A stretch of 64,000 nt of DNA from Burkholderiaceae bacterium (GCA_041913045.1 JAYSGB010000009.1:9566-73565), one strand, 5' to 3'; shown: positions 5,775 through 22,155, counted from the first letter of the stretch. Numbers and translations are program-made. Notes: a model not told the origin generated them from the sequence alone.

Positions 5775-5851
5775 GGAGTGGTAGTTCAGTTGGTTAGAAT
5801 ACCGGCCTGTCACGCCGGGGGTCGCGGGTTCGAGCCCCGTCCACTCCGCCA
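5775..5851 (+). tRNA. tRNA-Asp (anticodon GTC)
   Basis: 77 nt: GGAGTGGTAGTTCAGTTGGTTAGAATACCGGCCTGTCACGCCGGGGGTCGCGGGTTCGAGCCCCGTCCACTCCGCCA. Near-identical architecture to E. coli tRNA-Asp. Confidence 0.95.
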
Positions 5852-5970
5852 ACAATACGAAAGCCGTTGTGATTTATTGATTCGCAACGGCTTTTTCCTT
5901 TGCGCGTTACACCGTTTACGCATCAGTGTTGCTGCCCCGAAGCGGCTTCGAAGAAGTAGCCACGGTGGAG
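5802..5970 (+). repeat. direct repeat B, copy 1 (attL-type: last 50 nt of tRNA-Asp plus ~120 nt flank)
   Basis: The 50 nt CCGGCCTGTCAC...CCACTCCGCCA recurs exactly at 21982-22031. The downstream flank (hairpin AGCCGTTG..CAACGGCT, then TTTTTCCTTTGCGCGTTACACCGTTTACGCA.CAGTGTTGCTGCCCCGAAGCGGC.TCGAAGAAGTAGCCACGGTGGAG) recurs at 22032-22155 with a few substitutions and a different hairpin loop. Confidence 0.9.
5862..5897 (+). terminator. intrinsic terminator after tRNA-Asp
   Basis: An 8-bp stem (AGCCGTTG / CAACGGCT) is followed by TTTTT. Confidence 0.7.
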
Positions 5971-6245
5971 CAGTCCCGACTGACTTCGCGAAGCGTTCCG
6001 AGGCCCTCGCCACGGAGCATAGCTATGTCCCACGTCCGGGCAGCTGCGAGCTATTTCAAGCTGGTTCCTGAAACTACCAGCCTTTGCCGCAGTACATGTG
6101 CCGGCGCGCCAGCGTCTGTCACTTCAATCTCAAGGTCCCGGCAGAAGTGTTGAATCACAACGAAAACTGGGCCATTTTTGGGGTCAGTTTGTACGGTGAA
6201 TCAACATTCTGACCTTGCCCTCGAAATGTGAATCCCATAACTGAG

Positions 6246-7142: not shown

Positions 7143-7432
7143 AGCGACTCTTTCGCGAAGTACGCCGTGGCCTTTTTTAGGATGTCGCGCTCCATCTTGA
7201 CCCGCGCCAACTCAGCACGCAACCGGCTGATTTCCATCTGCTCAGCACTCACCGGCTTGCTGTCCGCCCCTGTAAGCCGACCTTCCCGACTGGCCTTGAC
7301 CCAGTTGAACAAGGTCTGCTCCACCAGCCCAAGGCTGCGCGAGACCGCCGCCATGCTCTGCCCCGATTGCACCAGCCGCACCGCCTCCTGCTTGAACTCC
7401 AGCGTGTAGCGCGACCTCACCGTCTTCGTCAT
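7139..7432 (-). CDS. IS3-family transposase OrfA (HTH)
   Basis: Contains MTKTVRSRYTLEFKQEAVRLVQSGQSMAAVSRSLGLVEQTLFNWVK and a leucine-zipper-like C-terminus. Confidence 0.9.
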   Translation of the reverse strand: MTKTVRSRYTLEFKQEAVRLVQSGQSMAAVSRSLGLVEQTLFNWVKASREGRLTGADSKPVSAEQMEISRLRAELARVKMERDILKKATAYFAKESL

Positions 7433-7495
7433 TCCATCTCTCCTTGCCTGTATTGAATCACTCAGCAAGAGATTCGTTTTTCAGGGGCAAGGTCA

Positions 7496-8767
7496 TTTCT
7501 CTCCTGGGCGCTAGTGGATACCACCGCTGCGCTTACGCAGGTTGGCTCTTCAGCAAAAGAGACAGAGAGGGCGATCAGCGAGCTTCTTAAGGTCGCAGGG
7601 GGCAAATTTTTGACGTCTCTGGCGGGACTTTTCGCATCCATCGTCTGGACTTACAAGTCCAAAAGGGCATTGAATGAACTGAATGGTGCCTGTGGGGCAC
7701 TGTTGGAAGCTTTGAGCAGGCTCGCGCCACCAAACGGTGCCGAGTTGCTTTTGCGCCAAAAGCTGGAGGTCGCCAAGGACTCGTTAGGCCTATCCGAAGA
7801 GATGTTGACAGAAGCGCGGGAGCAGACTGGAACTTTCAAGCGGTTTGAAACAGATCTGGCGGTCACTTTAGCGGGGGCTATCACTAAGTCGTTCTCCCCT
7901 CAAATGGAAGCGATGACCGCTAAGTTGGTGGCATCCATTGATGGGCTCAGCGACAAGCTGGGAACAATGAATCAGGAAGCGCTGCAAAAGATGCTTCAAG
8001 ATTTCGCTGTCATGCTCAAACAGGAAACGGATTCGGAAATGGCTCAACTACGGCAAACCTTGTCTGAGTTGGCTGGAAAGCTCGAAGGTGCCGGTGCGAC
8101 ATTGGGTAAGGGGGCAGAGGGAGCGGCCACCGCAATCAACGATGCTGGCGCTCAGTTGGTTGCCAGAGTGCAAGAGATTTCACAGAACCTCTCAACTGGA
8201 GCCTCGAATTTGGAGGTTGCCGCTGGATCGGTGAAGCTGGCGATGAATGATCTGGAGGTAACCATGATGGAAGCATCCAACATCGGCAAGCGTGGCGCAC
8301 TTTTTGTGAACGAAGCACTGGAGAAAACAGGAAAAACCGTCCAAAGCCTTGATTCCATATCAGGTGGACTGGCAGATGCTGCGACCGCACTTCAGTCAGT
8401 AAGTGGGAAGATTGGCGAGGTGGTCGACAACGTCGAGGAACTGTCGCGTGAGCAAAGAGCTGTCGTATCAGCTGTGCGTGAGGTCGCCCCCGCTGCGCAG
8501 GCAGCGGTTGAGCGAGTCGCTTCGGTCCTCGAAGTGGCTGGCAGGCAATCTAAAGAGTCTATAGAAGCCACTGCAGCCACCTTGACGCGGACCGTCGCTT
8601 CTATCACCGAAGGGGTGACGTCGTATACAGACCAAGTGGCAGATCTTCACCGCAAGATGGACGGTCAATTGGCCAAGGCTGTGGGCAGTTTTGACAAAGG
8701 CGTCAGTGAGCTTTCGGAGTCTGTCGAAGAGCTGGCCGAAATCATGCAGAAGTCCAAGAGGGCGTGA
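7496..8767 (+). pseudogene. zorA: zorA (Zorya MotA/ExbB-like stator subunit), 5'-truncated at the IS3 boundary
   Basis: The reading frame is open from the first base after the IS end. Only one hydrophobic helix remains (FLTSLAGLFASIVWTY). It is followed by ~370 aa of Ala/Glu/Leu-rich coiled-coil-type sequence, as in a ZorA tail. The N-terminal membrane domain is absent. The call rests on context with zorBCD. Confidence 0.7.
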
Positions 8768-9510
8768 TCATGTTGCTACATCGGTCTACCTCTGAACATG
8801 GCCTAAGTGATGAACCGGAACACAGTTATCTTGCATCAGCAGCGGATTTGATGATCGGATTGCTTTTTGTGTTCATCATCATGGTGGCATTTCTTGCATT
8901 GCAGAAAAAGGCTGAGCAAGAAGCTCGTGCTGGCGACAGAGATCCTCGGGGTGCGGTCACGATAGCAATTGGTGAGGAAATTCGAAAGACTTTACCCACG
9001 GTCAAGGTGGACCCGTCTAGTGGGGTGATCACATTGCCGGAAGACTTGTTGTTTGATATAGGGAGTTCTGTGCTCAAGGAGTCGGCGGTTGAAAGGCTCG
9101 GAGAGACATCAAAAAAGTTAGCAGAGGTCTTGAGGTGTTTTGTCGCCAATCAAATGACTAAGTTAACGTGTAAACAGAATCCATTTGGTCATCAGATTGA
9201 GACCATATTTATTGAAGGTCATACCGATAGTCGGCCCATGAATCGGCTTGGTGGCAATATCAAGCTCTCTCTTGATCGCGCCATTTCGGTCAACGCGGCT
9301 CTGGTTCAAGGAACCTCTTTGTCTGGATTCAAAAACAAGAACGAACATCCTGTTTTTTCCTACAGTGCGTATGCGGAAAGCCGTCCTCTGATTAAGGAAG
9401 ATCCTTCAGATGGTCGGAATCGACGCGTCGACTTGAGAATCGTCTTGACATACAAGCCAGCCGATGCCGATACGCAAATTGATGCAGTGAGTTCAGCTGT
9501 TAAAAACTGA
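8764..9510 (+). CDS. zorB: ZorB (MotB/OmpA-like, peptidoglycan-binding)
   Basis: The N-terminal TM helix has the conserved Asp (SAADLMIGLLFVFIIMV). The C-terminal domain is OmpA-like (IFIEGHTDSRP....N..LSLDRA..V.....RRVDLRIV). Its start overlaps the zorA stop (GTGA). Confidence 0.85.
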   Translation: MIMLLHRSTSEHGLSDEPEHSYLASAADLMIGLLFVFIIMVAFLALQKKAEQEARAGDRDPRGAVTIAIGEEIRKTLPTVKVDPSSGVITLPEDLLFDIGSSVLKESAVERLGETSKKLAEVLRCFVANQMTKLTCKQNPFGHQIETIFIEGHTDSRPMNRLGGNIKLSLDRAISVNAALVQGTSLSGFKNKNEHPVFSYSAYAESRPLIKEDPSDGRNRRVDLRIVLTYKPADADTQIDAVSSAVKN

Positions 9511-9512
9511 AA

Positions 9513-10904
9513 ATGTTTACGCCCCTGCCTCAGTCAATGTCCAAATTGGAAGCGGCCGTGCAACTGCTCGACGACCCAGGGCTGCAGCCGCCACCGCCCG
9601 ACATCTTAGAGATCGGTGAGCGTCTGAGAAAAGTTTATGCGCGGGCGCGTTCAAATGGCTACACCGATATCAGTCGCAGTGAACTGCGTAAGTTGCCTTT
9701 TGCGTACTGGGCCTCCTCCTCTCCCGTACTTACCCAGGTTGAACCTGATCTCGTAAGTCAGTATTGGAATATACACCTTCCCCAGGCGTTGACCGCCAGT
9801 CCACGGCGTGCCAAGCGATGGTTGGCGCCGCTCTTCTTCGTCTACTGTGAGCGCTTTTCTCAAAAAGACAGCGAGTTTCTTGCCTTTGCGTCAAGGCTCG
9901 TACGCGCGATCCAGATGGCGCAGGGCTTGTTTGCCCAAAGGATGCAATTCCTTCAGTCGGAGTATCGATTTTTTAATCCAATCGAAGCTCCGAGTCGTTT
10001 GGCCAACTTTTTCTTTCTGAGTCGAACAAAGGCCTTGGATGCATTACTCAGCGATCTTCAACTTTGGCCAGGTTTCCTCGCGTCCGAATTTGGATCAGCT
10101 GTTTTTAAAGCAGGTCTCGGTGCTTCTGTGGAGAGTCTCCGGGATTCACAGACTGTTCATCGATTGCTGGATTGGGCAAGACGTGGACAGGTCAAAGTAG
10201 TCAAGACAGACCTACGTATTACGTTTGCTAACGCACTGTTGAGCTGCTGGGTCGGCCGTAAGCCCGTAGAGTCTTTGAAGAATGTCTTAGTGGATCATTT
10301 TTTGAAGGAGTACGGCGACCCCCGATTCCAATCTCATCTTCACTATCAGTGGGATGGTGTTTCTCAGCAAGCCAAAGGAGTCATTCTCAATTGGTTGACT
10401 GGTGACACATTGCGCGGCTTTATGAAGTTGCTGCAGCGCACTGCGGATGATATTTGGCAGTATCGACAGAAGTTCTGGATGGCGTACTACGAGAGGGGAT
10501 ATATCGATGAAGCATGGATGGCTCTTGGAGACACAGCATGGTGGGCTGCTCAGAGCCTAAAAGCAGATGAAAAGGGAATGGGTTGCGCACGTTTGGATGG
10601 TGGCGCGGCGAGCAATCAATCCGTTCTGATCCTGAAGATTGGGGGCCTCGTTTTTACTGAATGGAGTCACAACGGCAGCTTGCGTGCTTATCGTGAAGGT
10701 AGTCCGGAAGCGCCGACGCTTTACAAGTCCAGTTACCACGGTGCGGACCTGCGATCGGCAACGTCACTTGATTTTCACGACGGCATGAACATGAATCCTG
10801 AACTTCGACACATGAACGCTGAGGGTGGAACTTGGCAACGCAAAGCAAGAGATTTCATTCGTCGACAAACCAACGTGCATTTGAGTGATTCGGAGATTTT
10901 GTGA
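9513..10904 (+). CDS. zorC: ZorC-like protein (EH-signature-domain candidate)
   Basis: A 463-aa protein in the position between zorB and the SNF2 helicase. It has a possible E..H signature (FTEWSHNG). The assignment rests mostly on conserved Zorya type I gene order. Confidence 0.65.
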   Translation: MFTPLPQSMSKLEAAVQLLDDPGLQPPPPDILEIGERLRKVYARARSNGYTDISRSELRKLPFAYWASSSPVLTQVEPDLVSQYWNIHLPQALTASPRRAKRWLAPLFFVYCERFSQKDSEFLAFASRLVRAIQMAQGLFAQRMQFLQSEYRFFNPIEAPSRLANFFFLSRTKALDALLSDLQLWPGFLASEFGSAVFKAGLGASVESLRDSQTVHRLLDWARRGQVKVVKTDLRITFANALLSCWVGRKPVESLKNVLVDHFLKEYGDPRFQSHLHYQWDGVSQQAKGVILNWLTGDTLRGFMKLLQRTADDIWQYRQKFWMAYYERGYIDEAWMALGDTAWWAAQSLKADEKGMGCARLDGGAASNQSVLILKIGGLVFTEWSHNGSLRAYREGSPEAPTLYKSSYHGADLRSATSLDFHDGMNMNPELRHMNAEGGTWQRKARDFIRRQTNVHLSDSEIL

Positions 10905-13717
10905 ATCTTGACTTGACTCCACACGGTGTGACGTGGCTTCTCAGTAATACCGTCTCTAATTGGCAAGCGTCTCTGCCCATTCAGGCGGCGACGGCTTTGA
11001 ACGATTTCCTTGCCGAGCACATGGAAGTGCTTGATCAGACATCCCTTACTGTGCCAGCGGAGATCGTTGCGTCATGGTCGGAGGTTGCAGCATTGCAGTT
11101 GGGTCTTCCATCGAATTGCCCGCTCGCTTTTGATGTGCGTCTTTCTGGTGCGATGGGTAAGCCTGGTGCGCAAATCAGTGTTCGGTGGCTTCAGCCAGGT
11201 AAAACTATCTCAGCTCGTGATGTTTCAATTGATAGACTTTGGTTGAACTATCAGGGGAAAAAATACAGGGTTAACTCACCAATTTATGACGTGCTGGGTC
11301 TTGTCGAGCGATTTAACAAGACACTGGACGCGACCATCGAGGAGCAGTTCCGTCTTTGGGCTGACATTCGGACTGCCTTGGGTGATTCTGGGGCCGAGAA
11401 GCTCACCGACAGTTTTTTGCGGTCTTTCCGGGTGATCTCGGCCTCAGCGTTGACCTTCTCGATAAGAACAGATGCGCGTGGGGAAGTGCAGCTAGATCCT
11501 GTTCTGTTGACCGAGAGGGGTGAGAGCGGTGACGGAACATCCGCACTCGTTCGTGCTTTGTCTGAAGTGGATGAGGAGCTTTTCCCTCAGAGGTTGGATC
11601 AGTTGCGCGAAGGGGTGCCAGCGTTCCCCTTAAGTCAGGGTACCTATGTCGTTGCCGATGAGCCTTTGCAGCGTGCATTGGCGGCGGTGCGTAAGCTCAG
11701 GAAGGCTCCTGCAGAGCAGCGCAAGCGTGCTGCAATGTATCCCGAAGCGGTTATTCGCGAATTGATGGAGGCCGAAGAGTCAGAGCCAACGGTTTTTGTC
11801 GAGACTGAAAAGTTCGCCGAGCGTGTTCGTGATGTCGGTGAGTGGTCTGCACCGGTGTTGCCATGGATCAAGATTTCCCCTCAAAAGTGGGATGCACCAC
11901 AGTCTGGTGGTATTCGAATTGACGGGGTTGATTTGCCACTTGACCAGTCGGCTGTGGCGCAGGCTGTACACGACATACAGGCTGCAATTTCTGAGGGCAA
12001 GCCGTCTATCACCGTCGGTGGTCAGAGCATTCCCGCTACTTCGGCGAATGCAAGCGCGCTGGGTCAGCTGTACAGAGCCATGACCAAACCTCCTGGAGAG
12101 TCTGGCACTGAAACACCTGATGATCCTTCAGTCAAAAACGTCCTGATCATCGAGACCAATTTCGATGAAACCTCATTTACCCGTACATCCCTTGGCAAAC
12201 GTGCTGGCTATGAGCGACTGCCGCATGGCTTGAAAACAAGCCCCAAAAAACACCAGGAGCTGGGTTTGAGTTGGCTCCAAAAGCACTGGATTGAAGGCAG
12301 CAGAGGAGCCATGCTGTGCGACGACATGGGCTTGGGTAAGACCTTCCAGGCACTCGCTTTTTGTTTGTGGCTGCACGAGTGCATGGATGAAGGTTTGTTG
12401 CCGAAGAAGCCTTTGCTGGTTGTCGCTCCTGTTGGTCTTCTGCGAAATTGGGAGTCCGAGATCGATGAGCACCTCTTTGCTCCCGGCCTTGGGGACATGG
12501 TTCGCGCCTACGGCGATCATCTCAAATCGCTTCGGCGAGGTCGGCATCTGGATGGTACAGCTGGACTGGACACTGCACGGTTGGCCTCTGCCAATGTGGT
12601 GCTCGCCAACTATGAAGCGGTATCGGATTATCAGTTGAGTTTTGGAGCCGTACCTTTTGCTGCGGTAGTGTTGGATGAGGCGCAGAAGATCAAATCGCCG
12701 AAGGCTCGGATGACGCACGCCATTAAGGGGTTGAATGCGGATTTCATGCTGGCTATGACAGGAACGCCAATTGAGAATCGTTTGGCCGATCTTTGGTGTA
12801 TCGCGGATGCAGTGCAGCCAGGCGCACTCTCCGACCTGAAGGAATTTAGCGCAACCTACGAGGTCGAGGGCGCCAATGTTCAGCAACTGCGAGAACAGGT
12901 GTGGCAGGAGGAATCTGACATCCGACATGTGCCGAAGCTGCTCTTGCGACGTCTGAAAACTGAAAAGCTTGATGGACTTCCGGCCAAGCATGAGCACTTG
13001 TTGAAGATCCCGATGCCAGCCCGTCAGTTAGAGGCGTACAAGCGTGCACTGGCTATGAAGGAGATATCTGGGCCTGCAGGTACATTAGGGATGATCCATG
13101 CTCTCAGACGTGCGTCGTTGCACCCCGCATTGATTGAGGGCGGTGCTAAGGCCTCTGAGTTGAAGGTAGAGGATTCAGCACGGTTTATTGCCCTGATGCG
13201 TATCTTGGATCGGGTGGCAGAGGGTGGCGAGAAGGTCTTGGTTTTTCTGGAGTCGTTGGACCTTCAGGATGCGGAGCAGTTACCCCTGCTTTTGCAGCGC
13301 CGCTACGGATTGCCCAAATCGCCCATGGTCATCAATGGGCAGGTCAGCACCGAGGTTCGGCAGCAGCGTGTCAACGCCTTTCAGCGTGATAAGGGCTTTG
13401 ACGTGATGCTGCTATCTCCAAAGGCGGGTGGCGTGGGGCTAACGCTGACAGCGGCCAACCACGTTATTCATCTGTCCCGGTGGTGGAACCCTGCAGTGGA
13501 GGACCAATGTTCAGATAGGGTTTACCGAATCGGTCAATCCAAGCCTGTTCACATTTATTACCCTCTGGCGGTCTTGCCGGGTCGCGAGGAACACAGCTTT
13601 GATTGGCAGCTGCAGATCCTAATGGATCGGAAACGTAAGCTGGCGTTGAATCTTCTGTCTGCGCCTGCGTTTACCCACGAGGATTATCAAACTCTTGTGG
13701 CTGGTATCCAAAAATAG
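10901..13717 (+). CDS. zorD: ZorD (SNF2-family helicase)
   Basis: SNF2 motifs are present: DDMGLGKTFQALAF, VVLDEAQKIKSP, MTGTPIENRLADLW and LLSPKAGGVGLTLTAANHVIHLSRWWNPAVEDQCSDRVYRIGQ. It has a long N-terminal extension. Its GTGA start overlaps the zorC stop. Confidence 0.85.
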   Translation: MNLDLTPHGVTWLLSNTVSNWQASLPIQAATALNDFLAEHMEVLDQTSLTVPAEIVASWSEVAALQLGLPSNCPLAFDVRLSGAMGKPGAQISVRWLQPGKTISARDVSIDRLWLNYQGKKYRVNSPIYDVLGLVERFNKTLDATIEEQFRLWADIRTALGDSGAEKLTDSFLRSFRVISASALTFSIRTDARGEVQLDPVLLTERGESGDGTSALVRALSEVDEELFPQRLDQLREGVPAFPLSQGTYVVADEPLQRALAAVRKLRKAPAEQRKRAAMYPEAVIRELMEAEESEPTVFVETEKFAERVRDVGEWSAPVLPWIKISPQKWDAPQSGGIRIDGVDLPLDQSAVAQAVHDIQAAISEGKPSITVGGQSIPATSANASALGQLYRAMTKPPGESGTETPDDPSVKNVLIIETNFDETSFTRTSLGKRAGYERLPHGLKTSPKKHQELGLSWLQKHWIEGSRGAMLCDDMGLGKTFQALAFCLWLHECMDEGLLPKKPLLVVAPVGLLRNWESEIDEHLFAPGLGDMVRAYGDHLKSLRRGRHLDGTAGLDTARLASANVVLANYEAVSDYQLSFGAVPFAAVVLDEAQKIKSPKARMTHAIKGLNADFMLAMTGTPIENRLADLWCIADAVQPGALSDLKEFSATYEVEGANVQQLREQVWQEESDIRHVPKLLLRRLKTEKLDGLPAKHEHLLKIPMPARQLEAYKRALAMKEISGPAGTLGMIHALRRASLHPALIEGGAKASELKVEDSARFIALMRILDRVAEGGEKVLVFLESLDLQDAEQLPLLLQRRYGLPKSPMVINGQVSTEVRQQRVNAFQRDKGFDVMLLSPKAGGVGLTLTAANHVIHLSRWWNPAVEDQCSDRVYRIGQSKPVHIYYPLAVLPGREEHSFDWQLQILMDRKRKLALNLLSAPAFTHEDYQTLVAGIQK

Positions 13718-13921
13718 AAAGTCGATTCATGCCTCAGTTCGATGAGGTCTGCGAAGGAAATGTTCTGATTTCCTGCCGGTTTCCCACAGGGGCGCGAGCC
13801 TAGCGTGGTCGGGCGTCAGTTTGGATTGCCCTTGTAGTCCACGTAAGGCGTTAGGTCGACGTGTTTGGCGCTGAGCCGAAAGGTCGAATCTTGCGGTTCC
13901 GATATATCTTTGTCGTCCGTT

Positions 13922-14524
13922 TCAAATCGCCGCAGCCCAGTCGGTGATGGCGCGTGCAAGTTTTTGGCCGGCCTGCCCAGATGGCTCGATCGGTGACGCC
14001 TCGGAAAAATCCGCCGCCTCGGTCAGCAGTGTGCGAAGGTCGAGGATGTCAAAGCGGTGTTGCATTGCGCTACGAGTCACCACATCATTGAAAACCGACA
14101 GCGCGGTCTCAAGGGCCGGGGTCAGTCCCGGCACGGCGTCGTAAATCGTACAGACCAGGGTAGGCAGTCGGCGCTCGGACACTCGATCCATAAGGTAATC
14201 GTAGTGACTCGTGAAATCCGTCTGGATGTGGTTCAGGTGCGCCAGGGCTTCCATCACGGAACTCACCGGGTGGTCTAGGGTGGGCAGCCATGACAGGGCA
14301 TCGTTACCACCGACGCTCAGCACCAGATGGGTCGTGCTCTGAGGCAACCGCTGCAACTGGGCATGCACCTGCCGCGTCACATCGCCGTCGACGGCCAGCA
14401 GGGTACAGGCGTGTGGGGATTTCAGCGTACGATGAAGGTGTTCTAGGACAGATTCGGAGGGCGCCACGTAGCTGGCGTTGTCGAAGATGGAGTCGCCCAG
14501 GAGAGCCAGATGGTGGGAGTTCAT
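13922..14524 (-). CDS. SGNH/GDSL-like hydrolase-fold protein (atypical block V)
   Basis: Block I is LLGDSIFDN and block III is SVGGNDA. The position normally occupied by DxxH reads SPIEPS. Confidence 0.65.
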   Translation of the reverse strand: MNSHHLALLGDSIFDNASYVAPSESVLEHLHRTLKSPHACTLLAVDGDVTRQVHAQLQRLPQSTTHLVLSVGGNDALSWLPTLDHPVSSVMEALAHLNHIQTDFTSHYDYLMDRVSERRLPTLVCTIYDAVPGLTPALETALSVFNDVVTRSAMQHRFDILDLRTLLTEAADFSEASPIEPSGQAGQKLARAITDWAAAI

Positions 14525-14609
14525 GGGTTCACATTCCTTAGTGATTGCCGCCAGAAAGAAGGGGGTGTCTGTCGTTTCTCGAAGCGTCTGCGCTGAGTTT
14601 GGGATGTGT

Positions 14610-15578
14610 TCATGAATAGGCCCGAATGGCCTGGGCCAGTTCCGCCTTAAGGGCGCTTCTCAATTCCTTGGGCTCCAGCGCCTCGACATGCGCCCCGTGA
14701 CGGAGAACGTCTAGCGTCAACTCCCTCAGGTCCGTGTATGGCAGCCGCATCTCCATGCGCCCGTCCGTGAGCCACGTGATTTCCTGCTTCGGGTGCCACA
14801 TCTCCCTTGATACCCAGCGTGCCCGCTCAGCCGAGAACCGCAGCCGCGCCCACTGCACTTCTCCACCAGAAAATATCCCGTACCCTTGTCCAACGAACTC
14901 CTCGAGCGCCCGCTCATCCACCTCCCGGCTCTTGACTTCCAGCAGGTGCACTTCTTCCATCGAGTCGAGGGCAAAGGAGCGCAAGCCGCCTCGCATGTGG
15001 CACCACGCTACGAGGTACCAGTTGCCCCGGTAATGCACCACCACTTGGGGTGAGACCACCCGTTCGCTTCGTTCGTCCCTGGCCCGGACGTAGTACCGCA
15101 GCGCTAACTGGCGGCGGGTGAGGAGGGCGGTGGCCACCATTTCGAAGTGCTGAGCCGCCACCGCACGGTGACCGGTGGTCAGCAGACGGAAGCGCTTCTC
15201 CACATCGTCGGCCGCGTGCTGGCCGGATTCAATCAGGGCCCGCAGCCGTGCTTTCAACGGTTCAACCTGTGCCTTGAGCAGCGTCGGCTGCAGGTCGGAC
15301 AGCATCGCCTGCATCATCAAGAGCGCGTAGGCCTCCTGGGCGTTGAACCAAAGGCCTGGCAGGTTCTGGGTTTCTGCCGCACCGTCCTGCTCGTACCGAT
15401 AGCCCCGCGACTCCCGGTCCCAGACGATGGGGTAGTTCAGCCGGTCGCGCATGTACTCGATGTCGCGCTTGAACGTTGCCCGGGAGACCGCCAACATTTC
15501 CAGCATCGTGCCGATGGGCACCGATCGCCCGCCTTGTAACAGGGCGTCGATTTTGTAGAAGCGCTCGGTCCGGTCCAT
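14610..15578 (-). CDS. WYL-domain transcriptional regulator (HTH-WYL-WCX architecture)
   Basis: The N-terminal HTH is MLEMLAVSRATFKRDIEYMRD. The central WYL motif is VVHYRGNWYLVAWCH. It has a C-terminal extension domain. Length is 322 aa, typical of BrxR/CapW/PafBC-like regulators. Confidence 0.85.
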   Translation of the reverse strand: MDRTERFYKIDALLQGGRSVPIGTMLEMLAVSRATFKRDIEYMRDRLNYPIVWDRESRGYRYEQDGAAETQNLPGLWFNAQEAYALLMMQAMLSDLQPTLLKAQVEPLKARLRALIESGQHAADDVEKRFRLLTTGHRAVAAQHFEMVATALLTRRQLALRYYVRARDERSERVVSPQVVVHYRGNWYLVAWCHMRGGLRSFALDSMEEVHLLEVKSREVDERALEEFVGQGYGIFSGGEVQWARLRFSAERARWVSREMWHPKQEITWLTDGRMEMRLPYTDLRELTLDVLRHGAHVEALEPKELRSALKAELAQAIRAYS

Positions 15579-15579
15579 C

Positions 15580-16383
15580 TCAGAGCAGCCTCACCGTTTC
15601 CAGGTCGGCCTTGCCGCCGTAGAACTGCTTCAGAGCCAAATGGAACACCGAGTGCGGTGCGGCCGATGCCCGTTCAAAAAGCGTCGCGCAGGAGCGAAAC
15701 TTCATCGCATCCACCGTCCCGAAGATGTCCTCTGCCCGACGGTTGGGGTGCTGCAGGATCAGGCGGAAGCACTCGTGCAGCCGCCGACCCAGTAAGGGGT
15801 GCTCCAGATACGCCCGGGCCTCGTCCAAGTCCACGATGCCGTACCTCTGGGCTTTCCTAGAGTGACCCAGCCCGTGTAGCTGCGGAAACACAAACCACAT
15901 CCAGTGCGTTTCCTTGCGACCGGCCCGAAGTTCCTCCATCGCGGTGTCGATGACTGGCGCCTGGGCCTGCACAAAGCGCTCCAGACCTGCGGGTGTCATT
16001 GTGCGACGCTGAGTCACCCTCTCAAGACCCGGCGGCTGTTGCCAATACTCACCGGACGAGTAGACCGGCCGTTCGAACCGCTTTACCCGTCGGAGGGGAA
16101 ACTGGGGCAATCCGGCCACCGCCCGAAATCCCGGCTGTTCACTGAGCGGCGTGAAGCCGTTGAACGCCAGGGCATGCTCGGCCTGAGCTGCATTCGCGTA
16201 CACCACTTCATCGAACACCAAACCGTGGTCATCGAAGAACAGGATGGACGTACCCGTCTGAGCCGACGAATCGGCCGTGCAGGCCTCGGCCAATATTGCC
16301 CAGTTCTGCTGCAGCATGCCTGTGACCTTGAACCACAGCGGTCCTCGGGGCAAGTCCAGCAGTTGAGCCTGTGGTCTGGCCAT
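15580..16383 (-). CDS. DUF1810-domain protein with an unknown ~130-aa N-terminal domain
   Basis: The C-terminal half matches DUF1810 as I recall it: LERFVQAQ, HWMWFVFPQLHGLGHS, AQRYGI..LDEARAYLEHPLLG.RL, FGTVDAMKFRSCATLF and QFYGGKADLETV. I prefer the start at 16383 (AAGGA upstream) over 16407. The gene ends 1 nt before the WYL start codon. Confidence 0.7.
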   Translation of the reverse strand: MARPQAQLLDLPRGPLWFKVTGMLQQNWAILAEACTADSSAQTGTSILFFDDHGLVFDEVVYANAAQAEHALAFNGFTPLSEQPGFRAVAGLPQFPLRRVKRFERPVYSSGEYWQQPPGLERVTQRRTMTPAGLERFVQAQAPVIDTAMEELRAGRKETHWMWFVFPQLHGLGHSRKAQRYGIVDLDEARAYLEHPLLGRRLHECFRLILQHPNRRAEDIFGTVDAMKFRSCATLFERASAAPHSVFHLALKQFYGGKADLETVRLL

Positions 16384-16428
16384 CTTCGTCCTTGGTGAAT
16401 TCGGCATGTATTCAGGTTATCTTGTTTA

Positions 16429-16449
16429 GTGGCTCATGCTGTGAGCCAC
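16429..16449. promoter_or_regulatory. perfect 8-5-8 palindrome (GTGGCTCA-TGCTG-TGAGCCAC), candidate operator
   Basis: It lies in the 123-bp divergent intergenic region between the DUF1810-WYL-SGNH operon and the COG3904-like / HExxH-HicA gene pair. Its function is inferred only. Confidence 0.35.
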
Positions 16450-16506
16450 ATGTCTGCCAATACTACCCCTATTGCAATCACTGTCTTATGGAGGTGGGGT
16501 GCTCAC

Positions 16507-17520
16507 ATGAAAGTTACCCTGCGCTTGCCCAAACTGGCCCGTCGCGACTACGTATCTCCCAGGTCCAATAATTGGCCAGGCATGAGGCAGTTCTTGTGTC
16601 TGCATTGGCGGGGTGAACTCGGGCTGTTTCGGACTCTGGTGGTTGCACTCTGTGTGGTGTTTTTGCCGACCACCTTGATCCTTTTTGGGGCCTTTCTGCT
16701 CAGCCTGGCCTTTCATCCCGAAAGCAAGCCCGTGGACATGATTTTTCGCCTTGGCTCCGCGGCACTGTTGCCCGCCATGTTCTGGTGGGCCGGGGGAACG
16801 TACCGCAAGTCCATGAACCTCCTGACCGAGTCGAGGACGGCGGCAGCTCTTCTCACATTTCTGATGGCTGGATTTGGAATCTGGATGCTGTGTGGTACGA
16901 CCAGGGAAGTCATCCAAGATAACTGGAAATCCCCCAGCGCCTACGAGCGTATGCTCAGCGAATGCGAGCGACGTGCAGATAAATGGATTTCGAAGCCTTG
17001 GGCCGTCACGGCGATGCCTGAACTCAACCGGATCGTCGTGAGCGGGAGCATTGGGGAAGGCAGCGCCAAGGCGCTAGAGCGAACGATCATGGATAACCCG
17101 CACCTAAAGCTTCTGCAGCTTGATTCCCCTGGGGGACTGGTTCATGAGAAAGAACTCATCATCGAGATCGTAAGAAAGCATGGCCTGGATACCCTTGTGC
17201 AAGGCCGTTGCGTGAGCGCTTGCACCGGCATCTTTCTAGCCGGTGAGCGCCGCTTTATCACACCAGATGCACGATTTGGCTTCCACCGTGCGGGCTACTG
17301 TGGACTACCGCGAGAAGCGCCCTGGATGATTTCGGACTACATGACCTCGATCTACTACCGCGAGCGTGGTGTTGAGGAGGGCTTCATGCAGGAGGCGATG
17401 GAAACACAGTATCACGACCTCTGGCGGCCCAGCGCCCTCGAGGTGAAGCTGGGCAAGTTCGCAACGCACTGGTGGTCAGAAAGGCCGGAAGAGTACAGCC
17501 GCGCGGCATTCATGAAATGA
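16507..17520 (+). CDS. membrane protein with a ClpP/S49-like (COG3904-type) C-terminal domain
   Basis: GGAGGTG lies 9 nt upstream of the ATG. There are three hydrophobic helices in the first ~150 aa. The C-terminal domain reads IVVSGSIGEGSAKALERTI..NP.LKLLQLDSPGGLV.E...I..IVRKHGLDT.V.G.CVSACTGIFLAG..RFI.P.A.FGFHRAG. This resembles the ClpP/SppA-type xDSPGG fold. Confidence 0.6.
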   Translation: MKVTLRLPKLARRDYVSPRSNNWPGMRQFLCLHWRGELGLFRTLVVALCVVFLPTTLILFGAFLLSLAFHPESKPVDMIFRLGSAALLPAMFWWAGGTYRKSMNLLTESRTAAALLTFLMAGFGIWMLCGTTREVIQDNWKSPSAYERMLSECERRADKWISKPWAVTAMPELNRIVVSGSIGEGSAKALERTIMDNPHLKLLQLDSPGGLVHEKELIIEIVRKHGLDTLVQGRCVSACTGIFLAGERRFITPDARFGFHRAGYCGLPREAPWMISDYMTSIYYRERGVEEGFMQEAMETQYHDLWRPSALEVKLGKFATHWWSERPEEYSRAAFMK

Positions 17521-17583
17521 GGGTTGGCCGGATTGTGGCTCTAAAGATCAGTTGCAAGCTCGGCTTCACAATGGAGTGACCTT

Positions 17584-19521
17584 ATGAACAGCCCAAGCAA
17601 CAGCCCCCCGCGGCTGCGAAGCTGGATTCCACCCAGCTTCGCATGGACGACTGCACCTGACGTGTTCTGTATTGATGTGCCGATCACCGATCCTGACGTT
17701 GTCGAATTAATATCAACTGGCTCGCTTGAGGTAACCATCTACGGAACTAAGGCCACAGCGCGAGCATTAGCCCGTCTGCGAAGCGGTACCGGGCTAATGG
17801 GAGAACTGGAGCAAGCGGTTTGGTCTCCTGACAAGCTCAAAACGACCGACTCACGCATTAGCCCCGGTACAAAGGTTATCGCGTATTGCTACGGTGTGTT
17901 TTTGCTGCCTGGCGACAAGACCCTATGCGTGCTGGTGGGCCGATCGAAGCCGTTTGTGCCGGATGCCTGGATATCGCCTACCCTCAAAGCCAGTGCAGAT
18001 GCGCTGCTTCTGGAGCATCGGGCCAAGGTCGCCGAATTCGACGATGCGATCAGTCGTAAGAAGCAGGACAACGAGGACTTCTACGGCCGCAACGGTGACA
18101 TGAAGAAGTTCGAAGGGTTCGCCCAGGCGCAGTTGGCGATGGAGAGCCAGTTTCAGCGCCCGGTTGTGACTGCGGAGCGGCTACGGACTTTCATGCTACG
18201 TGCCGTGAAGTTCCCACAGCCTACTTCGGGTGACACGGAGAAGCTGGCACGTTCAGCAGTTTCCGCGGTCGCCGCATCTGGCTGGCCACCTTCCCGTGAT
18301 GGCAACTACGTCGGCATTCTCCCCGGCACTGCTGGGCGCCGCGCGCAAGGCCTCATCTCATGGGTGCCCCACTCAGGCTTGCCCTCGTACCCGGAAGTCC
18401 GCTGGGCCGTTCAAAGGCGCTTGCCTGCGGCACTGCGCAAGCCGCGTAGGGAGAATATGGGTCGTCCCAACTTCGACACTGGCGCTCAGGCGGTGGTGGA
18501 GTCGGTTCAGGCCCAGAGCTTTGTTCCGGAGGCGAACGACCTCATGGATTCGCTGGGCGATCTGGAGCTCGACCAAATCGATTACCGTGACCGGGTTGAC
18601 GGCGTTCGCAAGGGCTTAAAGGGACAGGGCTTCGAGGCCATTGCCTGGTTCCAGCCCTATCACGTCTGGACCGAGGAAACGTGGGGCATCTACGTCGACG
18701 CCCGAAAGCTGGACGACCTGGCGCTCAGCTTTCTGAACGACTTCAAGCTGGCGCATGTTAGTGGGTCGCACAGCCTCGCTGCGCTGCTGGCCTTTGGCCT
18801 GACCTACGCCCACGAGCTGTTCCACGCTCGGGTGGAGGCCGCACTTTCGTGGCTGGAGATCAACGCCCAGCAGCCGCGACACCTGCGCTACCAGGACCGC
18901 GTCTACCAAGCGCTGCGCGAAACGCCCGACTGGCTTGAAGAGGCGCTGGCCAACTGGTCAGCATGGGACTGGTTTAAAGCACCTGGCATCCAGTCGTTGG
19001 TGGCACGCATGGCGTCGAACATTGAGGGCCTGGACCGGGTCGTCGAAGGAGCTCTCGACCTCGCACCACCTGGGTATCAGGAGTGGCGCCTGGGACATCA
19101 GGCTGCCACATGGCGCACCTTTGCCAACCAGTTAAGCACTGCCAACCCCAAGACCAACGCCACCAGCATCGGCCTGCCGCTTGAAAGCGCGCTGACCGGC
19201 CCGCTGCCGTACGACTTCCAGCCCGCCGACATCCCTTTGCGTTTTGTGGGCCCCGGGGTCATCGCTGACCGTCTCCAGAGCCACCCGGCCACGTTCAACG
19301 TGCCGCCTCGCCGCGAGCTTGAGCGGGCGCTAAGACACTTCCGCCACAGCCTGGACGCATCAGGCGGCAAAGGCGGCCACCAGAAGTGGACGGGGCCGGA
19401 TCAACGTGCCTTCATTCTTCCAACGCGCGACCCGGTGAGCCCGGGCGTCTTCAAAACGTTCCTGCACCACGTGGGCATCGACAAAGCTACCTACGTGCGT
19501 CAAGTTCGACCTAATCTCTGA
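17584..19521 (+). CDS. 645-aa multidomain protein: unknown N-terminal region, HExxH zinc-peptidase-like motif, C-terminal HicA-like domain
   Basis: GGAG lies upstream of the ATG. YAHELFHARVE is followed ~38 aa later by EEALANW, a gluzincin-like spacing. The last ~70 aa (LERALRHFRHSLDASGGKGGHQKWTGPDQRAFILPTRDPVSPGVFKTFLHHVGI) align by eye with the HicA/YcfA toxin pattern. The first ~400 aa match nothing I recognise. Confidence 0.6.
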   Translation: MNSPSNSPPRLRSWIPPSFAWTTAPDVFCIDVPITDPDVVELISTGSLEVTIYGTKATARALARLRSGTGLMGELEQAVWSPDKLKTTDSRISPGTKVIAYCYGVFLLPGDKTLCVLVGRSKPFVPDAWISPTLKASADALLLEHRAKVAEFDDAISRKKQDNEDFYGRNGDMKKFEGFAQAQLAMESQFQRPVVTAERLRTFMLRAVKFPQPTSGDTEKLARSAVSAVAASGWPPSRDGNYVGILPGTAGRRAQGLISWVPHSGLPSYPEVRWAVQRRLPAALRKPRRENMGRPNFDTGAQAVVESVQAQSFVPEANDLMDSLGDLELDQIDYRDRVDGVRKGLKGQGFEAIAWFQPYHVWTEETWGIYVDARKLDDLALSFLNDFKLAHVSGSHSLAALLAFGLTYAHELFHARVEAALSWLEINAQQPRHLRYQDRVYQALRETPDWLEEALANWSAWDWFKAPGIQSLVARMASNIEGLDRVVEGALDLAPPGYQEWRLGHQAATWRTFANQLSTANPKTNATSIGLPLESALTGPLPYDFQPADIPLRFVGPGVIADRLQSHPATFNVPPRRELERALRHFRHSLDASGGKGGHQKWTGPDQRAFILPTRDPVSPGVFKTFLHHVGIDKATYVRQVRPNL

Positions 19522-19742
19522 ACCCTCAAGCTCTCGTTGCTGGGGCGTGGCAAGATTTTCTGAACCTCTGGATGATAAAAGCACAGCGACTCACTCGATG
19601 GGGTAAGCGGCAGACACTAAGATCGTTTCTCGCAGTGGAGCCGATCACGCGGCCATCGTCATTTGCCTTCATTTGTCACCACGCGGAGGGGGGTGTTCCG
19701 GGGGATCGATGGAATGGGCTTTACGGAAAAATAAGACGCGAC

Positions 19743-19816
19743 AAGGGCTTAGAAATCACGCCCATGTACTGCTGCATTCCCCCTGTCCTAGGTTCGAGTC
19801 TCGTTAGCCCATCGCC
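19743..19816 (+). other. degenerate tRNA-like remnant (T-loop GGTTCGAGTC plus acceptor-like pairing)
   Basis: AAGGGCT (19743-19749) can pair with AGCCCAT (19806-19812). GGTTCGAGTC sits at 19791-19800. No convincing D arm or anticodon arm is present. It lies 23 nt from the integrase stop codon. Confidence 0.25.
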
Positions 19817-19838
19817 GGGATTGGCCCAAGAGAACACC

Positions 19839-20948
19839 TCAACGAGCTGGAGCCGCAGAGCGACTCTTGCGGCGATCGTAGACCGTTTTGATCATTTTTT
19901 CACTGCGATGCAGCGTCGCGTCTTGAACGTCCGTATGTCCCGCTGTGAGTTTGTCGGTCACCCCTTTCGGGCGTACATCAAGCAAGCTGAAGCGTTCGAA
20001 GGGAATGCCGCGTGCTTCAGCTTCGACCGCGCAAGCCCGCATCAATCTCCTGAGGGTCGCTTTCCACCCGCCCTTGGTGTAGCGAGTGCCGCTTTGCGTG
20101 CGAAAAATCAAGCCTTCATCCGGGATGCAATTGTGTCCATCTAGTGCCATCACCTGCTGGATGATGTCCTTCATTCTCGGTGTCCAATGAATCGTCACAT
20201 CCCTTTTTTTCTGATTGCGCTTGGTCTTCTTTTCCGTCCAAACCAGACCCTCAGGCTGGACCATCGACCATTTCGCTTCCAGCACTTCGCCGGGCCGCCG
20301 CAGACACAGGTAACCCATGGCCAAAGCCAATGAGGCTCGGAGCAGTTGCCCTCCTTTCTTTGCGCCAACTTCGAGTACCAATTCAAGTTCCTCATCTTTG
20401 ACGTAACGTGTGCTGGGGGAAGTGGGAAGCTTCTCAATGTCGTTAAGGGGATTGCTGTCGATCAGGCCCTTGCGCACAGCGCGCTTGAGGATCAACTGAA
20501 AGAGCTGAATTTCCTTGTTTCCCTTGGGCCCACGTCCCAACTCATCACACTTGTCCAGGTAGGAGTAAGCGTGATGGGGCCGGATGTCGGTGATCAGCAT
20601 TTCACCGAAGACAGTCATCAAAGTCTTCGCTTCGCGCTCGTTTTCTTCAATCGTGGAGTCGGCACGTTTGTTCGGGCTCTTGGCGGGCAGCGCACGTTGC
20701 CACTTGAACCAGTCGGCGGTCAATTGCGACACAGTCTGGATTTCTTCACCGGTCTCCGAATACAAAAGCGCTCGCTTGGTCGCCTCGTTCCGCAGCCGCT
20801 TGATCTGATTCTTGTCGTTGATCGGGCATGACAGTCGAAACGCCCAAGTGCCATCTTTTCGCTTGTAGCCAATGGAGTAGGTTTCCACCCCGCTGCGCTC
20901 ATAGACGCGATGGGGCAGACCATCATGGGTTGCACGCACGCGACTCAT
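19839..20948 (-). CDS. int: tyrosine-type site-specific integrase
   Basis: A 369-aa protein with a C-terminal catalytic region: LCLRRPGEVL (Arg I), LLDVRPKG (box region) and TLHRSEKMIKTVYDRR (His and the Tyr nucleophile). It sits next to the island's right-hand att repeat. Confidence 0.85.
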   Translation of the reverse strand: MSRVRATHDGLPHRVYERSGVETYSIGYKRKDGTWAFRLSCPINDKNQIKRLRNEATKRALLYSETGEEIQTVSQLTADWFKWQRALPAKSPNKRADSTIEENEREAKTLMTVFGEMLITDIRPHHAYSYLDKCDELGRGPKGNKEIQLFQLILKRAVRKGLIDSNPLNDIEKLPTSPSTRYVKDEELELVLEVGAKKGGQLLRASLALAMGYLCLRRPGEVLEAKWSMVQPEGLVWTEKKTKRNQKKRDVTIHWTPRMKDIIQQVMALDGHNCIPDEGLIFRTQSGTRYTKGGWKATLRRLMRACAVEAEARGIPFERFSLLDVRPKGVTDKLTAGHTDVQDATLHRSEKMIKTVYDRRKSRSAAPAR

Positions 20949-21241
20949 TGCAACCTCGCAAACTTATCGAGGGCGTCAAAGCGAGGCTGGCGTGCCGTGG
21001 CTTTCGATGCCTTTTCCTGCATCTTTTGAACGAAGACAAATCGCGCCACGCGCGGGTAAGAACTCTTACCCATCGCATTGGTGTAAGGCCAGTCGTTGGC
21101 GTCCAGCCAGTAGCGTTGTCGGGAGGGCTGCCGGCTGCCCGTGAGAGCGGTCAATTCCTCGCGCGTCAGCAGCAGCGACTGCCCCTCATCCGCAGAGTGC
21201 GGCGGGGTAGAAGCTTTACCAATGTGACCGGAACGAAGCAT
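20945..21241 (-). CDS. DUF4224-like small phage/island protein
   Basis: The LLLTREELTALTGSRQPSRQRYWLDANDWPY pattern is typical of DUF4224 proteins found immediately upstream of integrases. It overlaps the integrase start. Only the last 98 codons of the 372-aa track ORF look credible. Confidence 0.6.
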   Translation of the reverse strand: MLRSGHIGKASTPPHSADEGQSLLLTREELTALTGSRQPSRQRYWLDANDWPYTNAMGKSSYPRVARFVFVQKMQEKASKATARQPRFDALDKFARLQ

Positions 21242-21430
21242 GCAAGTCGTGTGAGTTGCGATGGCTTCGAGTCTCGAGGCGATTTTTGATACGCAGTACC
21301 TCACACCCAATGTCGCGATACAATCTCGTCGTTTTTCTTCCGATTTGAGGGGCGGGAGTTGCTCCTGATGTGTAAGGCTGGCCGCCAGATTTGGGTGGCG
21401 TGAGGACTGGATGGCAAAGGAAGGTGAGGT

Positions 21431-21874
21431 TTGAGCTTCTTCAGAAACACGGAAAGTGAGCGCCGGTGCGCTGAGCGCATGCTTGCTATCCAGCGAGGGT
21501 GGTACCCGATCGATTCCGACGAATTCAGCGTCGATGAAATTGCAGATCGATACCAAGTGCATCGGGATACCGTTTACAAAGGCGTGCGCTCTGGCAGCCC
21601 ACTTTTCCCCAAAGCGACCCGAAAGCGGACAGGTCCCAAAGCCTGGCTGTACTTCTCTTCTGAGGATGTCCGGGATTGCGATCAGAACCGTATTGCCTTC
21701 TACCAAACCACCCCGTCCTGGAAAGTCTTGACCGGGCAAGAGGCCAAGGCTGCGCCCCCGAGGCGGTCGGCTAAAGAAGTCCTGAAGGGGCAGGCAACCC
21801 AGGTCCGAAAAAACGCTGGGAAGATGGGTGCAGCCGGGCCCGAAAAACGCTCCAACGCGGGGGCTCAGAAATGA
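21431..21874 (+). CDS. excisionase-like HTH DNA-binding protein (MerR/HTH_17-like)
   Basis: FSVDEIADRYQVHRDTVYKGVRSG resembles an excisionase-family HTH. The C-terminus is basic. A TTG start follows a strong AAGGAAGGTGAGG, with an alternative ATG at 21479. It lies between the integrase and the att repeat. Confidence 0.45.
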   Translation: MSFFRNTESERRCAERMLAIQRGWYPIDSDEFSVDEIADRYQVHRDTVYKGVRSGSPLFPKATRKRTGPKAWLYFSSEDVRDCDQNRIAFYQTTPSWKVLTGQEAKAAPPRRSAKEVLKGQATQVRKNAGKMGAAGPEKRSNAGAQK

Positions 21875-21880
21875 GTCAAG

Positions 21881-21942
21881 TTTTGGAATATCCCTTTTCG
21901 CTACGAGGGGGATTTGGAGCAAAAAACGGCCATTTTGGAATA
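21881..21942 (+). promoter_or_regulatory. direct repeats TTTTGGAATA x2 (plus ATTTGGA), candidate integrase arm-type sites
   Basis: TTTTGGAATA occurs at 21881-21890 and 21933-21942, and GATTTGGAGC at 21911-21920. All lie just inside the right att core. A related CCATTTTTGGGG occurs at 6172-6183 near the left end. Confidence 0.3.
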
Positions 21943-21981
21943 AGAATCGGCCGCAAACCCGCATGGATACTCGCATGACCC

Positions 21982-22155
21982 CCGGCCTGTCACGCCGGGG
22001 GTCGCGGGTTCGAGCCCCGTCCACTCCGCCATACCTAATTACAAAAAGCCGTTGTAAATCCATGACTTACGACGGCTTTTTCCTTTGCGCGTTACACCGT
22101 TTACGCACCAGTGTTGCTGCCCCGAAGCGGCCTCGAAGAAGTAGCCACGGTGGAG
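21982..22155 (+). repeat. direct repeat B, copy 2 (attR-type: 3'-terminal 50 nt of tRNA-Asp plus flank)
   Basis: See the entry for copy 1. The 5' part of the tRNA is absent here: the preceding sequence GCATGGATACTCGCATGACC is unrelated to the tRNA. Confidence 0.9.

Follow-up and report, generated by a model that had tools for sequence, protein, structure and literature searches.

Two genes of the same orientation, referred to here as g1 and g2, lie side by side in a genomic island of a Burkholderiaceae bacterium, and they raise the question of whether they form one defence system and, if not, what the longer of the two is for. The island is part of a 64,000-nucleotide (nt) stretch of DNA (GCA_041913045.1 JAYSGB010000009.1:9566-73565) that was analysed at its full length and is called the window below. 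A sequence-only reading of this locus had taken the pair for an uncharacterised two-gene module in which g1 supplies a membrane partner to g2. Co-occurrence across other genomes largely refutes such a two-gene system, and we lean towards a different reading, in which g2 is an autonomous, cis-inhibited, toxin-type effector that serves restriction-modification (R-M)-like defence as an accessory, backup or abortive-infection gene, and in which its position next to g1 is an accident of mosaicism.

Both g1 and g2 are real genes and not chance open reading frames (ORFs), given hundreds of g2 homologues, 32 proteins in the g1 family and the ratio of nonsynonymous to synonymous substitution rates (dN/dS) of g2. 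Measured against the closest relatives in our collection of loci (L004 and L027), this ratio is 0.26-0.29 for the whole of g2 and 0.15-0.19 for residues 335-645, and at about 0.28 it places the window copy, which is intact, under purifying selection. A pair of relatives embedded in operons for bacteriophage exclusion (BREX) gave 0.27, similar to the orphan copies. The two ORFs, the 63-nt spacing, the Shine-Dalgarno sequences (GGAGG before the g1 ATG, GGAG 7 nt before the g2 ATG) and all motifs quoted in the sequence-only reading were found as it gave them. It had also called the pair unassigned, and PADLOC-DB v2 returned zero matches for g1, for g2 and for a BREX-embedded orthologue of g2 (L011:9998-11917).

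A HicA-type domain at the end of a long protein

Homologues of g2 number at least 261 in a 90%-clustered collection, every one of them labelled 'hypothetical', and a profile search of 1.84 billion representatives returned 151 members at E≤1e-30 and 300 at E≤1e-10, mostly of 600-680 residues. The National Center for Biotechnology Information (NCBI) annotation of a Comamonadaceae orthologue (WP_144731168.1, 574 residues) begins at the equivalent of g2 M72, which excludes positions 17584-17796. Because the first 71 residues are conserved across the family, the alignment shows the 645-residue start of g2 to be, in our view, the correct one.

An AlphaFold2 model built from 91 sequences, with a mean predicted local distance difference test (pLDDT) score of 76 and a predicted template modelling (pTM) score of 0.50, resolves the protein into alpha/beta segments with a long helical hairpin (residues 1-283), a disordered linker (284-315), a helical domain with two short strands (about 335-530), a connector (531-575) and an alpha-beta-beta-beta-alpha-alpha unit (576-645). 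Conservation is lowest towards the N-terminus, where sequence pairs average 0.43-0.61 identity; the mean is 0.75 for the helical domain, 0.79 for the connector and 0.82 for the C-terminal unit. Residues that are invariant or nearly so down to about 21% identity are H360, W367-G368, H410-E411-x-x-H414, E425, E452-E453, N457, G497-Y498, G595, G597 and H599; they include parts of the EEALANW motif at residue 452, which lies 38 residues past H414, and of GGKGGHQKW at residue 594. Used as a single query, the g2 sequence drew nothing from Pfam, NCBIfam, PADLOC or PHROG except a HicA match below threshold, a full-length family profile found nothing real among PDB sequences, and the N-terminal region had neither a profile match nor a fold match (Foldseek against PDB). 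A HicB-like domain in this N-terminal region, suggested by resemblance to the eye, found no support in Pfam or Foldseek.

The C-terminal domain of g2 is confirmed as a member of the HicA family by profile and by modelled fold, and an RNase function is predicted for it. The Pfam HicA_toxin model (PF07927) matches 39 of 66 diverse g2 relatives at E≤0.01, the best at 4e-9, and a profile of the C-terminal 80 residues (A4) finds PDB 1WHZ at E=4.5e-8 across the whole domain and the Streptococcus pneumoniae HicA structure 5YRZ at 0.0023, with the G-K-G-S/G-H motif of the g2 family aligned to KGGH of 1WHZ and KGSH of 5YRZ. In the model, residues 576-644 follow the order H-E-E-E-H-H (H, helix; E, strand), a layout resembling the double-stranded-RNA-binding domain (dsRBD), and Foldseek against BFVD places the model with small phage HicA-like or RNA-binding proteins (probability 0.93-1.0, root-mean-square deviation 2-3 Å, 54-66 columns). 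G597 and H599 occur without exception in 91 sequences and in no less than 90% of a set that extends down to 21% identity; in Burkholderia pseudomallei HicA, Gly22 and His24 are needed for toxicity (PMC3969222). The relatives that score in Pfam, the 1WHZ match, the phage folds and the invariant G-x-H together bear out the HicA-like C-terminus that had earlier been proposed by eye.

What g2 shares with HicA toxins (PF07927; 1WHZ, 5YRZ and B. pseudomallei HicA) is thus the profile, fold and Gly-x-His of its last 70 residues. HicA toxins are stand-alone proteins of about 60 residues encoded next to HicB, whereas in g2 the HicA domain is the tail of a 645-residue protein. There is no HicB gene in any conserved context of the g2 family, where the neighbours in BREX loci are BrxC and PglXI, and no HicB-like or other small ORF lies around g2 in the window, which agrees with the earlier statement that no HicB-like antitoxin is encoded nearby. 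With HicB absent, g2 falls outside the canonical type II toxin-antitoxin modules of the HicAB kind, and the family widens the range of HicA-domain architectures by a long, HicB-less form.

Shorter members of the family, of about 320-355 residues, consist of the HExxH and HicA domains alone. When a profile of the HExxH domain was used to look for it in other combinations, all that it retrieved were fragments and short forms of the g2 family. Five variants that seemed to lack HicA (P0185, P0172, P0181, P0218 and P0225) proved to be gene calls with a frameshift or a truncation and do not represent effector swapping.

Type 3 BREX contexts and the proposed role of g2

Loci with a g2 relative were collected from 21 genomic and 49 metagenomic sequences. 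In 39 of these 70 loci the relative is flanked by type 3 BrxC and/or PglXI, as it is in 38 of the 52 loci whose relative is at least 50% identical; since all loci were chosen for carrying a g2 relative, these counts are not a frequency among type 3 BREX systems. The operons, typed as type 3 by both PADLOC and Pfam, run in the order BrxF-BrxC/PglY (DUF6079)-g2-PglXI-BrxH-PglZ-BrxA, often behind a WYL (BrxR-like) gene, and the gaps around the embedded gene are 3-15 nt in L011. Embedded orthologues include those of Limnohabitans sp. Jir72 (L010, 10010-11929) and of Accumulibacter (L011, 9998-11917). The sequence-only reading had named no defence system with this architecture; it was right in that PADLOC leaves the proteins unassigned, and it missed the embedding of most g2 relatives in type 3 BREX. 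The six genes of canonical type 3 BREX do not include a g2 gene (PMC10799925; PMC12839542), and neither the text nor the supplements of a BREX survey of 2026 mention a protein with HicA or HExxH (PMC12839542).

We rate g2 as an accessory gene of R-M-like defence that encodes a toxin-type fusion protein; its architecture and its link to type 3 BREX are previously undescribed. To our knowledge, how BREX works has yet to be settled, and little work has been done on type 3. An extra gene for a predicted toxin-type RNase, conserved in the slot that separates brxC from pglXI throughout a clade of type 3 systems, offers a testable handle on the coupling of sensing to effector action in BREX, or on a backup suicide response.

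The family also reaches beyond BREX. In L019/L020, an element that bears a relaxase, the relative precedes a type I R-M operon, some distant members adjoin OLD-like ABC ATPases or SNase, and a short-form relative (L078) adjoins an MmeI-type methyltransferase with a PLD-SNF2 helicase. Searches of plasmids and of viral contigs found no member of the family in either. Within the 64-kb window no BREX genes are present, a tblastn search with the six BREX proteins of L011 giving weak helicase similarity in ZorD only, so g2 is not a component of a BREX system here.

In the reading that we favour, the variable N-terminal region would detect either a cue from the phage or that the neighbouring system has failed or been inhibited. 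The HExxH domain, most likely a metal-dependent hydrolase, would then gate the response by cutting the conserved connector or a partner, and the freed HicA domain would degrade RNA and bring about growth arrest. The window copy would be a BREX-less orphan at the integrase end of its island, presumably still active alone, and the persistence of orphan copies under selection argues that they still function.

This inferred mechanism agrees with a proposal for fused HicA proteins, with findings on BxaP and with the backup RNases of BREX loci. Gerdes 2024 (PMC10865869) proposes that fused HicA proteins behave as does CapRel, which is inhibited in cis. BxaP is a rare gene found within type 3 BREX and type I R-M loci that defends alone, in an abortive-infection-like manner (PMC10799925). 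It resembles the g2 family as a rare extra gene inside type 3 BREX that also occurs with type I R-M, but it is an unrelated protein, with DUF4145 and a HEAT-like region, and its insertion site differs. BxaP was considered as an identity for g2 and ruled out, there being no DUF4145 match in g2 or in 66 relatives and the insertion site being another one. BREX loci are also known to harbour embedded backup RNase effectors (PMC12839542), and the embedded effectors as a group (GmrSD/BrxU, PARIS-like OLD-TOPRIM, HEPN, Schlafen and PIN RNases) are flanked by BREX core genes, as the g2 relatives are, and have been proposed as a second layer that acts when BREX is inhibited (PMC12839542).

Several points weigh against g2 as an autonomous effector. 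Taken by itself, the window protein reaches only 12 bits on Pfam HicA_toxin, under the 27-bit cut-off (E=0.24, model positions 2-58 of 58). The peptidase nature of its HExxH domain is unsupported beyond the motif, the model of that domain being of medium quality (pLDDT 71.6), and its role in toxicity or defence is one predicted from domains and context. In the window lineage g1 and g2 could be co-transcribed, given a 63-nt gap in which no terminator is predicted. Finally, the strict position between brxC and pglXI could mean that g2 is an integral part of BREX and not an autonomous effector.

If it were such a part, g2 would be the seventh component of a betaproteobacterial type 3 BREX subtype, for example regulating or processing BrxC or PglXI, or binding nucleic acid through its dsRBD-like HicA fold, and copies without BREX would be leftovers or repurposed. 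The 39 embedded relatives, which span 55-82% identity, do keep the same brxC-pglXI slot with gaps of 3-15 nt, and absence from plasmids and viral contigs speaks for the same view. However, intact orphans under purifying selection occur in at least three island backgrounds (the window, L004 and L026/L027), distant members accompany type I R-M, MmeI-type methyltransferase and OLD-like genes in the absence of BREX, the canonical six-gene operon lacks the gene (PMC10799925; PMC12839542), and the catalytic-type G-x-H is retained. We therefore regard an integral role as unlikely. The more ambitious proposal that the family marks a seven-gene type 3 BREX subtype, in which a new zincin-like hydrolase couples BrxC/PglXI to a HicA RNase and this arm is detachable, working alone or with Zorya or type I R-M as in the window, seems to us improbable as well; if it were true, BREX would have a built-in, protease-gated abortive-infection arm.

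Further genes were seen in and around these operons. A 467-residue ORF with no Pfam match lies between brxC and the g2 homologue in L002 (8556-9959), L013 (8556-9959) and L038 (1095-2438). A 606-residue ORF lies between pglXI and brxH in L006 (12377-14197), which is the reported insertion site of BxaP, and gaps are found there in L031 and L039 as well. Directly upstream of brxF, a PsyrT/PsyrA pair (a RecQ-like helicase and a DprA/SLOG protein) is present in L003 (2229-5707) and L005 (24-3265).

The HExxH domain and its possible function

The gating step of the autonomous-effector reading depends on the domain at residues 335-530. Like the gluzincins and minigluzincins of peptidase clan MA, this domain has an HExxH motif followed, 38 residues on, by a helix bearing two glutamates, but similarity to a peptidase family is not detectable. 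The WLEEALANW segment of g2 recalls what we take to be the gluzincin glutamate helix, W-x-x-E-G-x-A. No Pfam peptidase matched in 66 full-length members of the family (E≤0.01) or in 29 members represented by the domain only (E≤10, with no recurrent family), an NCBIfam scan of g2 gave no match, and neither did a profile of the HExxH domain (A5) against PDB sequences at E≤10. Foldseek against PDB found no peptidase with the full g2 model (pLDDT 76) or with a separate model of the domain (pLDDT 71.6, low-confidence strands), the best E value being about 1.

In the model, a strand-strand-helix unit precedes the HExxH helix, and the resulting order, strand-strand-helix-helix(HExxH), is compatible with the upper subdomain of a zincin on our own reading of the model. 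The invariance of HExxH and of the EE that follows it argues for a metal or catalytic site. The gluzincin-like HExxH+E arrangement proposed earlier therefore stands as a signature, invariant across the family, and is tentative as an assignment to clan MA, for which no profile or fold match was found. We treat residues 335-530 as an orphan domain with a zincin-like signature that is not assignable to clan MA peptidases, and it may represent a new family of metallohydrolases. Zincins of the YgjP type are known from type I R-M operons, and a YgjP-like peptidase is encoded in the R-M operon beside one g2 relative.

With peptidase homology undetectable and a separate HicB absent, the domain might instead be a non-enzymatic antitoxin acting in cis with a HicB-like function. 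In that case g2 would be a fused toxin-antitoxin protein, possibly a long version of Class 13 in the scheme of Gerdes, and maybe an addiction module that stabilises islands or operons. Gerdes 2024 (PMC10865869) describes Class 13 as proteins of 340-440 residues with a helical N-terminus and a C-terminal HicA, and Class 14 as SMC-HicA fusions. As described there, these fused proteins share with g2 a monocistronic gene, a C-terminal HicA and a proposed standing as cis-regulated defence toxins. The short forms of the g2 family, at 320-355 residues, resemble the mostly helical Class 13 and fit it by description, the comparison being one of descriptions and not of sequences, and g2 itself may be a long form of Class 13 fused HicBA. 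Unlike g2, the fused HicA proteins come with no mention of an HExxH motif, a 640-residue long form or a linkage to BREX in the available text of the source (PMC10865869). What tells against a purely inhibitory domain is the set of residues that stay invariant to about 21% identity (H360, H410, E411, H414, E425, E452, E453, N457 and Y498), a pattern expected of a catalytic or metal site and not of a binding surface, and we hold the cis-antitoxin function to be doubtful.

Adjacency of g1 and g2 in a mosaic island

A relative of g1 stands beside a relative of g2 in only one of the 70 loci, that of Extensimonas perlucida (L004), which shares window positions 13910-19777 at 91% nucleotide identity and is the same island segment. 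The pair was also found in Diaphorobacter sp. J5-51, again within the same segment and at about 91% nucleotide identity. Two further loci, L026 and L027, have Zorya genes 98.5% identical to those of the window, followed directly after zorD by a g2 homologue with no g1. This homologue is 94% identical to g2 from codon 78 on, the first 77 g2 codons are swapped relative to L027, and a 4.1-kb block of the window (13705-17814), which holds the GDSL, WYL and DUF1810 genes, g1 and those 77 codons, is absent from both loci. The islands of the window, L004 and L027 have a common right-hand boundary at window position 19777, inside a terminator hairpin. Because the one co-occurring locus is the same segment and L026/L027 lack the block, it is recombination between islands that has put g1 and g2 side by side, and they are not a system. 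The earlier claim of a two-gene module with a membrane partner fails on this evidence, together with relatives of g1 that elsewhere never accompany g2.

The hairpin at the boundary (window 19740-19815; L004 12163-12263; L027 8124-8224) has a 10-bp stem, CACGCCCATG…CATGGGCGTG, followed by a T run. It is intact in L004 and L027 and has lost its 3′ arm in the window, where the sequence past 19777 continues with a stretch resembling a tRNA T-arm (GGTTCGAGTC).

Outside the window lineage, g1 relatives were found in seven contexts, six of them distinct, and none of the seven contains a g2 relative. A WYL-WCX regulator is near the g1 relative in five of the six distinct contexts, and those of L022, L023, L024 and L077 are 58-62% identical to the window regulator over their full length. 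Where SIR2 accompanies a g1 relative, an orthologous regulator is encoded no more than a few kb away. A SIR2 gene lies upstream of the g1 relative in four of the six. In L022 (5150-7023), L023 (5108-7014) and L075 (5126-7008) it directly precedes the g1 relative, which it overlaps or abuts; in L024/L025 (L024 4460-6966) a YbjN gene separates the two. Two g1 paralogues are present in L075. Because g1 relatives keep an orthologous WYL-WCX regulator and never a g2 relative, g1 belongs with the divergently transcribed WYL-WCX cassette, and its partnership with g2 is not conserved. Together, g1, WYL-WCX and SIR2 give the impression of a separate cassette under WYL control that has yet to be characterised.

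It is thus very improbable that g1 and g2 form a dedicated abortive-infection system of two genes, with the membrane ClpP-like protein as partner of the HExxH-HicA protein, even though the genes are co-oriented, 63 nt apart with no predicted terminator between them and each with its own Shine-Dalgarno sequence, and even though the pair recurs in E. perlucida and Diaphorobacter, as g1 is missing from 69 of the 70 loci with g2 relatives and the family sizes are far apart (32 for g1, at least 261 for g2). Adjacency in a mosaic defence island is no evidence of a system, and g1 is better studied with its WYL-WCX and SIR2 neighbours.

Two stretches of the g1 product, residues 35-70 and 111-132, are strongly hydrophobic, with a weaker hydrophobic segment in between, in line with the three hydrophobic helices described earlier. 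Its motifs are LDSPGG at residue 205, CVSAC at 235 and GFHRAG at 258, and S-P-G209-G210, C235-x-S237-A-C239 and G258-F-H260 are invariant in 22 family sequences. It matches ClpP-like protease families of PHROG at up to E=6e-7, Pfam CLP_protease at E=0.049 (14 bits against a cut-off of 20.2 bits) and, weakly and far below the cut-offs, the ClpP-related and SppA profiles of NCBIfam; a match to NfeD was likewise sub-threshold. The earlier view of g1 as ClpP/SppA-like is supported by the PHROG match and the conserved SPGG, CxSAC and GFH, and the sequence fits an active, membrane-anchored serine peptidase of clan SK (COG3904 family). With ClpP and SppA (S14/S49, clan SK) and NfeD-type proteins g1 has in common the SPGG oxyanion motif, Ser237, His260 and an N-terminal membrane anchor; unlike them, it scores below curated cut-offs and belongs to a 32-protein family tied to a WYL-WCX regulator and SIR2. 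A longer g1 ORF, starting at a GTG at 16429, is possible.

The features of the locus are collected in Table 1. Because attR is a perfect repeat of the 3′ end of tRNA-Asp, the island is delimited as 5852-22031: the 50-nt repeat bounds a 16.2-kb tRNA-Asp genomic island that contains Zorya, the WYL cassette, g1, g2 and the integrase-like ORF. The neighbourhood is as the sequence-only reading had stated, with a WYL operon upstream and the end of Zorya 2.8 kb upstream of g1.

Table 1. Features of the island and of g2, with positions counted from the first nucleotide of the window
Feature	Position	Strand	Remark
attL	5802..5851	+	3′ 50 nt of tRNA-Asp
Type I Zorya: 5′-truncated zorA, zorB, zorC, zorD	7514..13717	+	
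DUF1810 / WYL-WCX / GDSL operon	13922-16407	-	
GDSL/SGNH hydrolase	13922..14524	-	last gene of WYL operon
HTH-WYL-WCX regulator	14610..15578	-	Pfam
DUF1810 protein	15580..16407	-	first gene of operon divergent from g1
g1	16507..17520	+	337 residues counted from ATG
g2	17584..19521	+	645-residue ORF; single-chain protein of an unnamed family; orphan copy outside BREX
g2 residues 1-334, N-terminal region	17584..18585	+	most variable part; candidate sensor or specificity region
g2 residues 335-530, helical HExxH domain	18586..19173	+	alignments A1, A3, A5
HELFH, residues 410-414	18811..18825	+	sole HExxH in g2
E452-E453 in WLEEALANW	18937..18942	+	candidate third metal ligand
g2 residues 531-575, connector LPLES…PYDF…DIPLRFVG…IAD	19174..19308	+	between HExxH and HicA domains
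g2 residues 576-645, HicA-type (dsRBD-like) domain	19309..19518	+	
G597-G598-H599	19372..19380	+	equivalent of HicA Gly22-x-His24
Integrase-like ORF	19839..20948	-	labelled from position beside attR and from the sequence-only reading
attR	21982..22031	+	perfect 50-nt copy of tRNA-Asp 3′ end, 16.18 kb downstream

The Zorya genes encode an OmpA-type ZorB, an EH_Signature ZorC and an SNF2 ZorD. An IS3-family transposase gene (rve, HTH_21; 6246-7468, minus strand) abuts the ZorA ORF (7514-8767, plus strand), whose 417 residues do not include the N-terminal MotA-like membrane part, and the Zorya system of the window is probably disrupted. The integrase-like ORF has no Pfam match at E≤0.001, and no Rfam RNA was found near g1 or g2. 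Past the two tRNA-Asp copies there is a second repeat, a 111-nt flank of 90% identity (5860-5970 and 22045-22155). Within the 99-bp divergent intergenic region before g1, a perfect 8-bp inverted repeat at 16429-16449 (GTGGCTCA-n5-TGAGCCAC) is a candidate operator for the WYL-WCX regulator.

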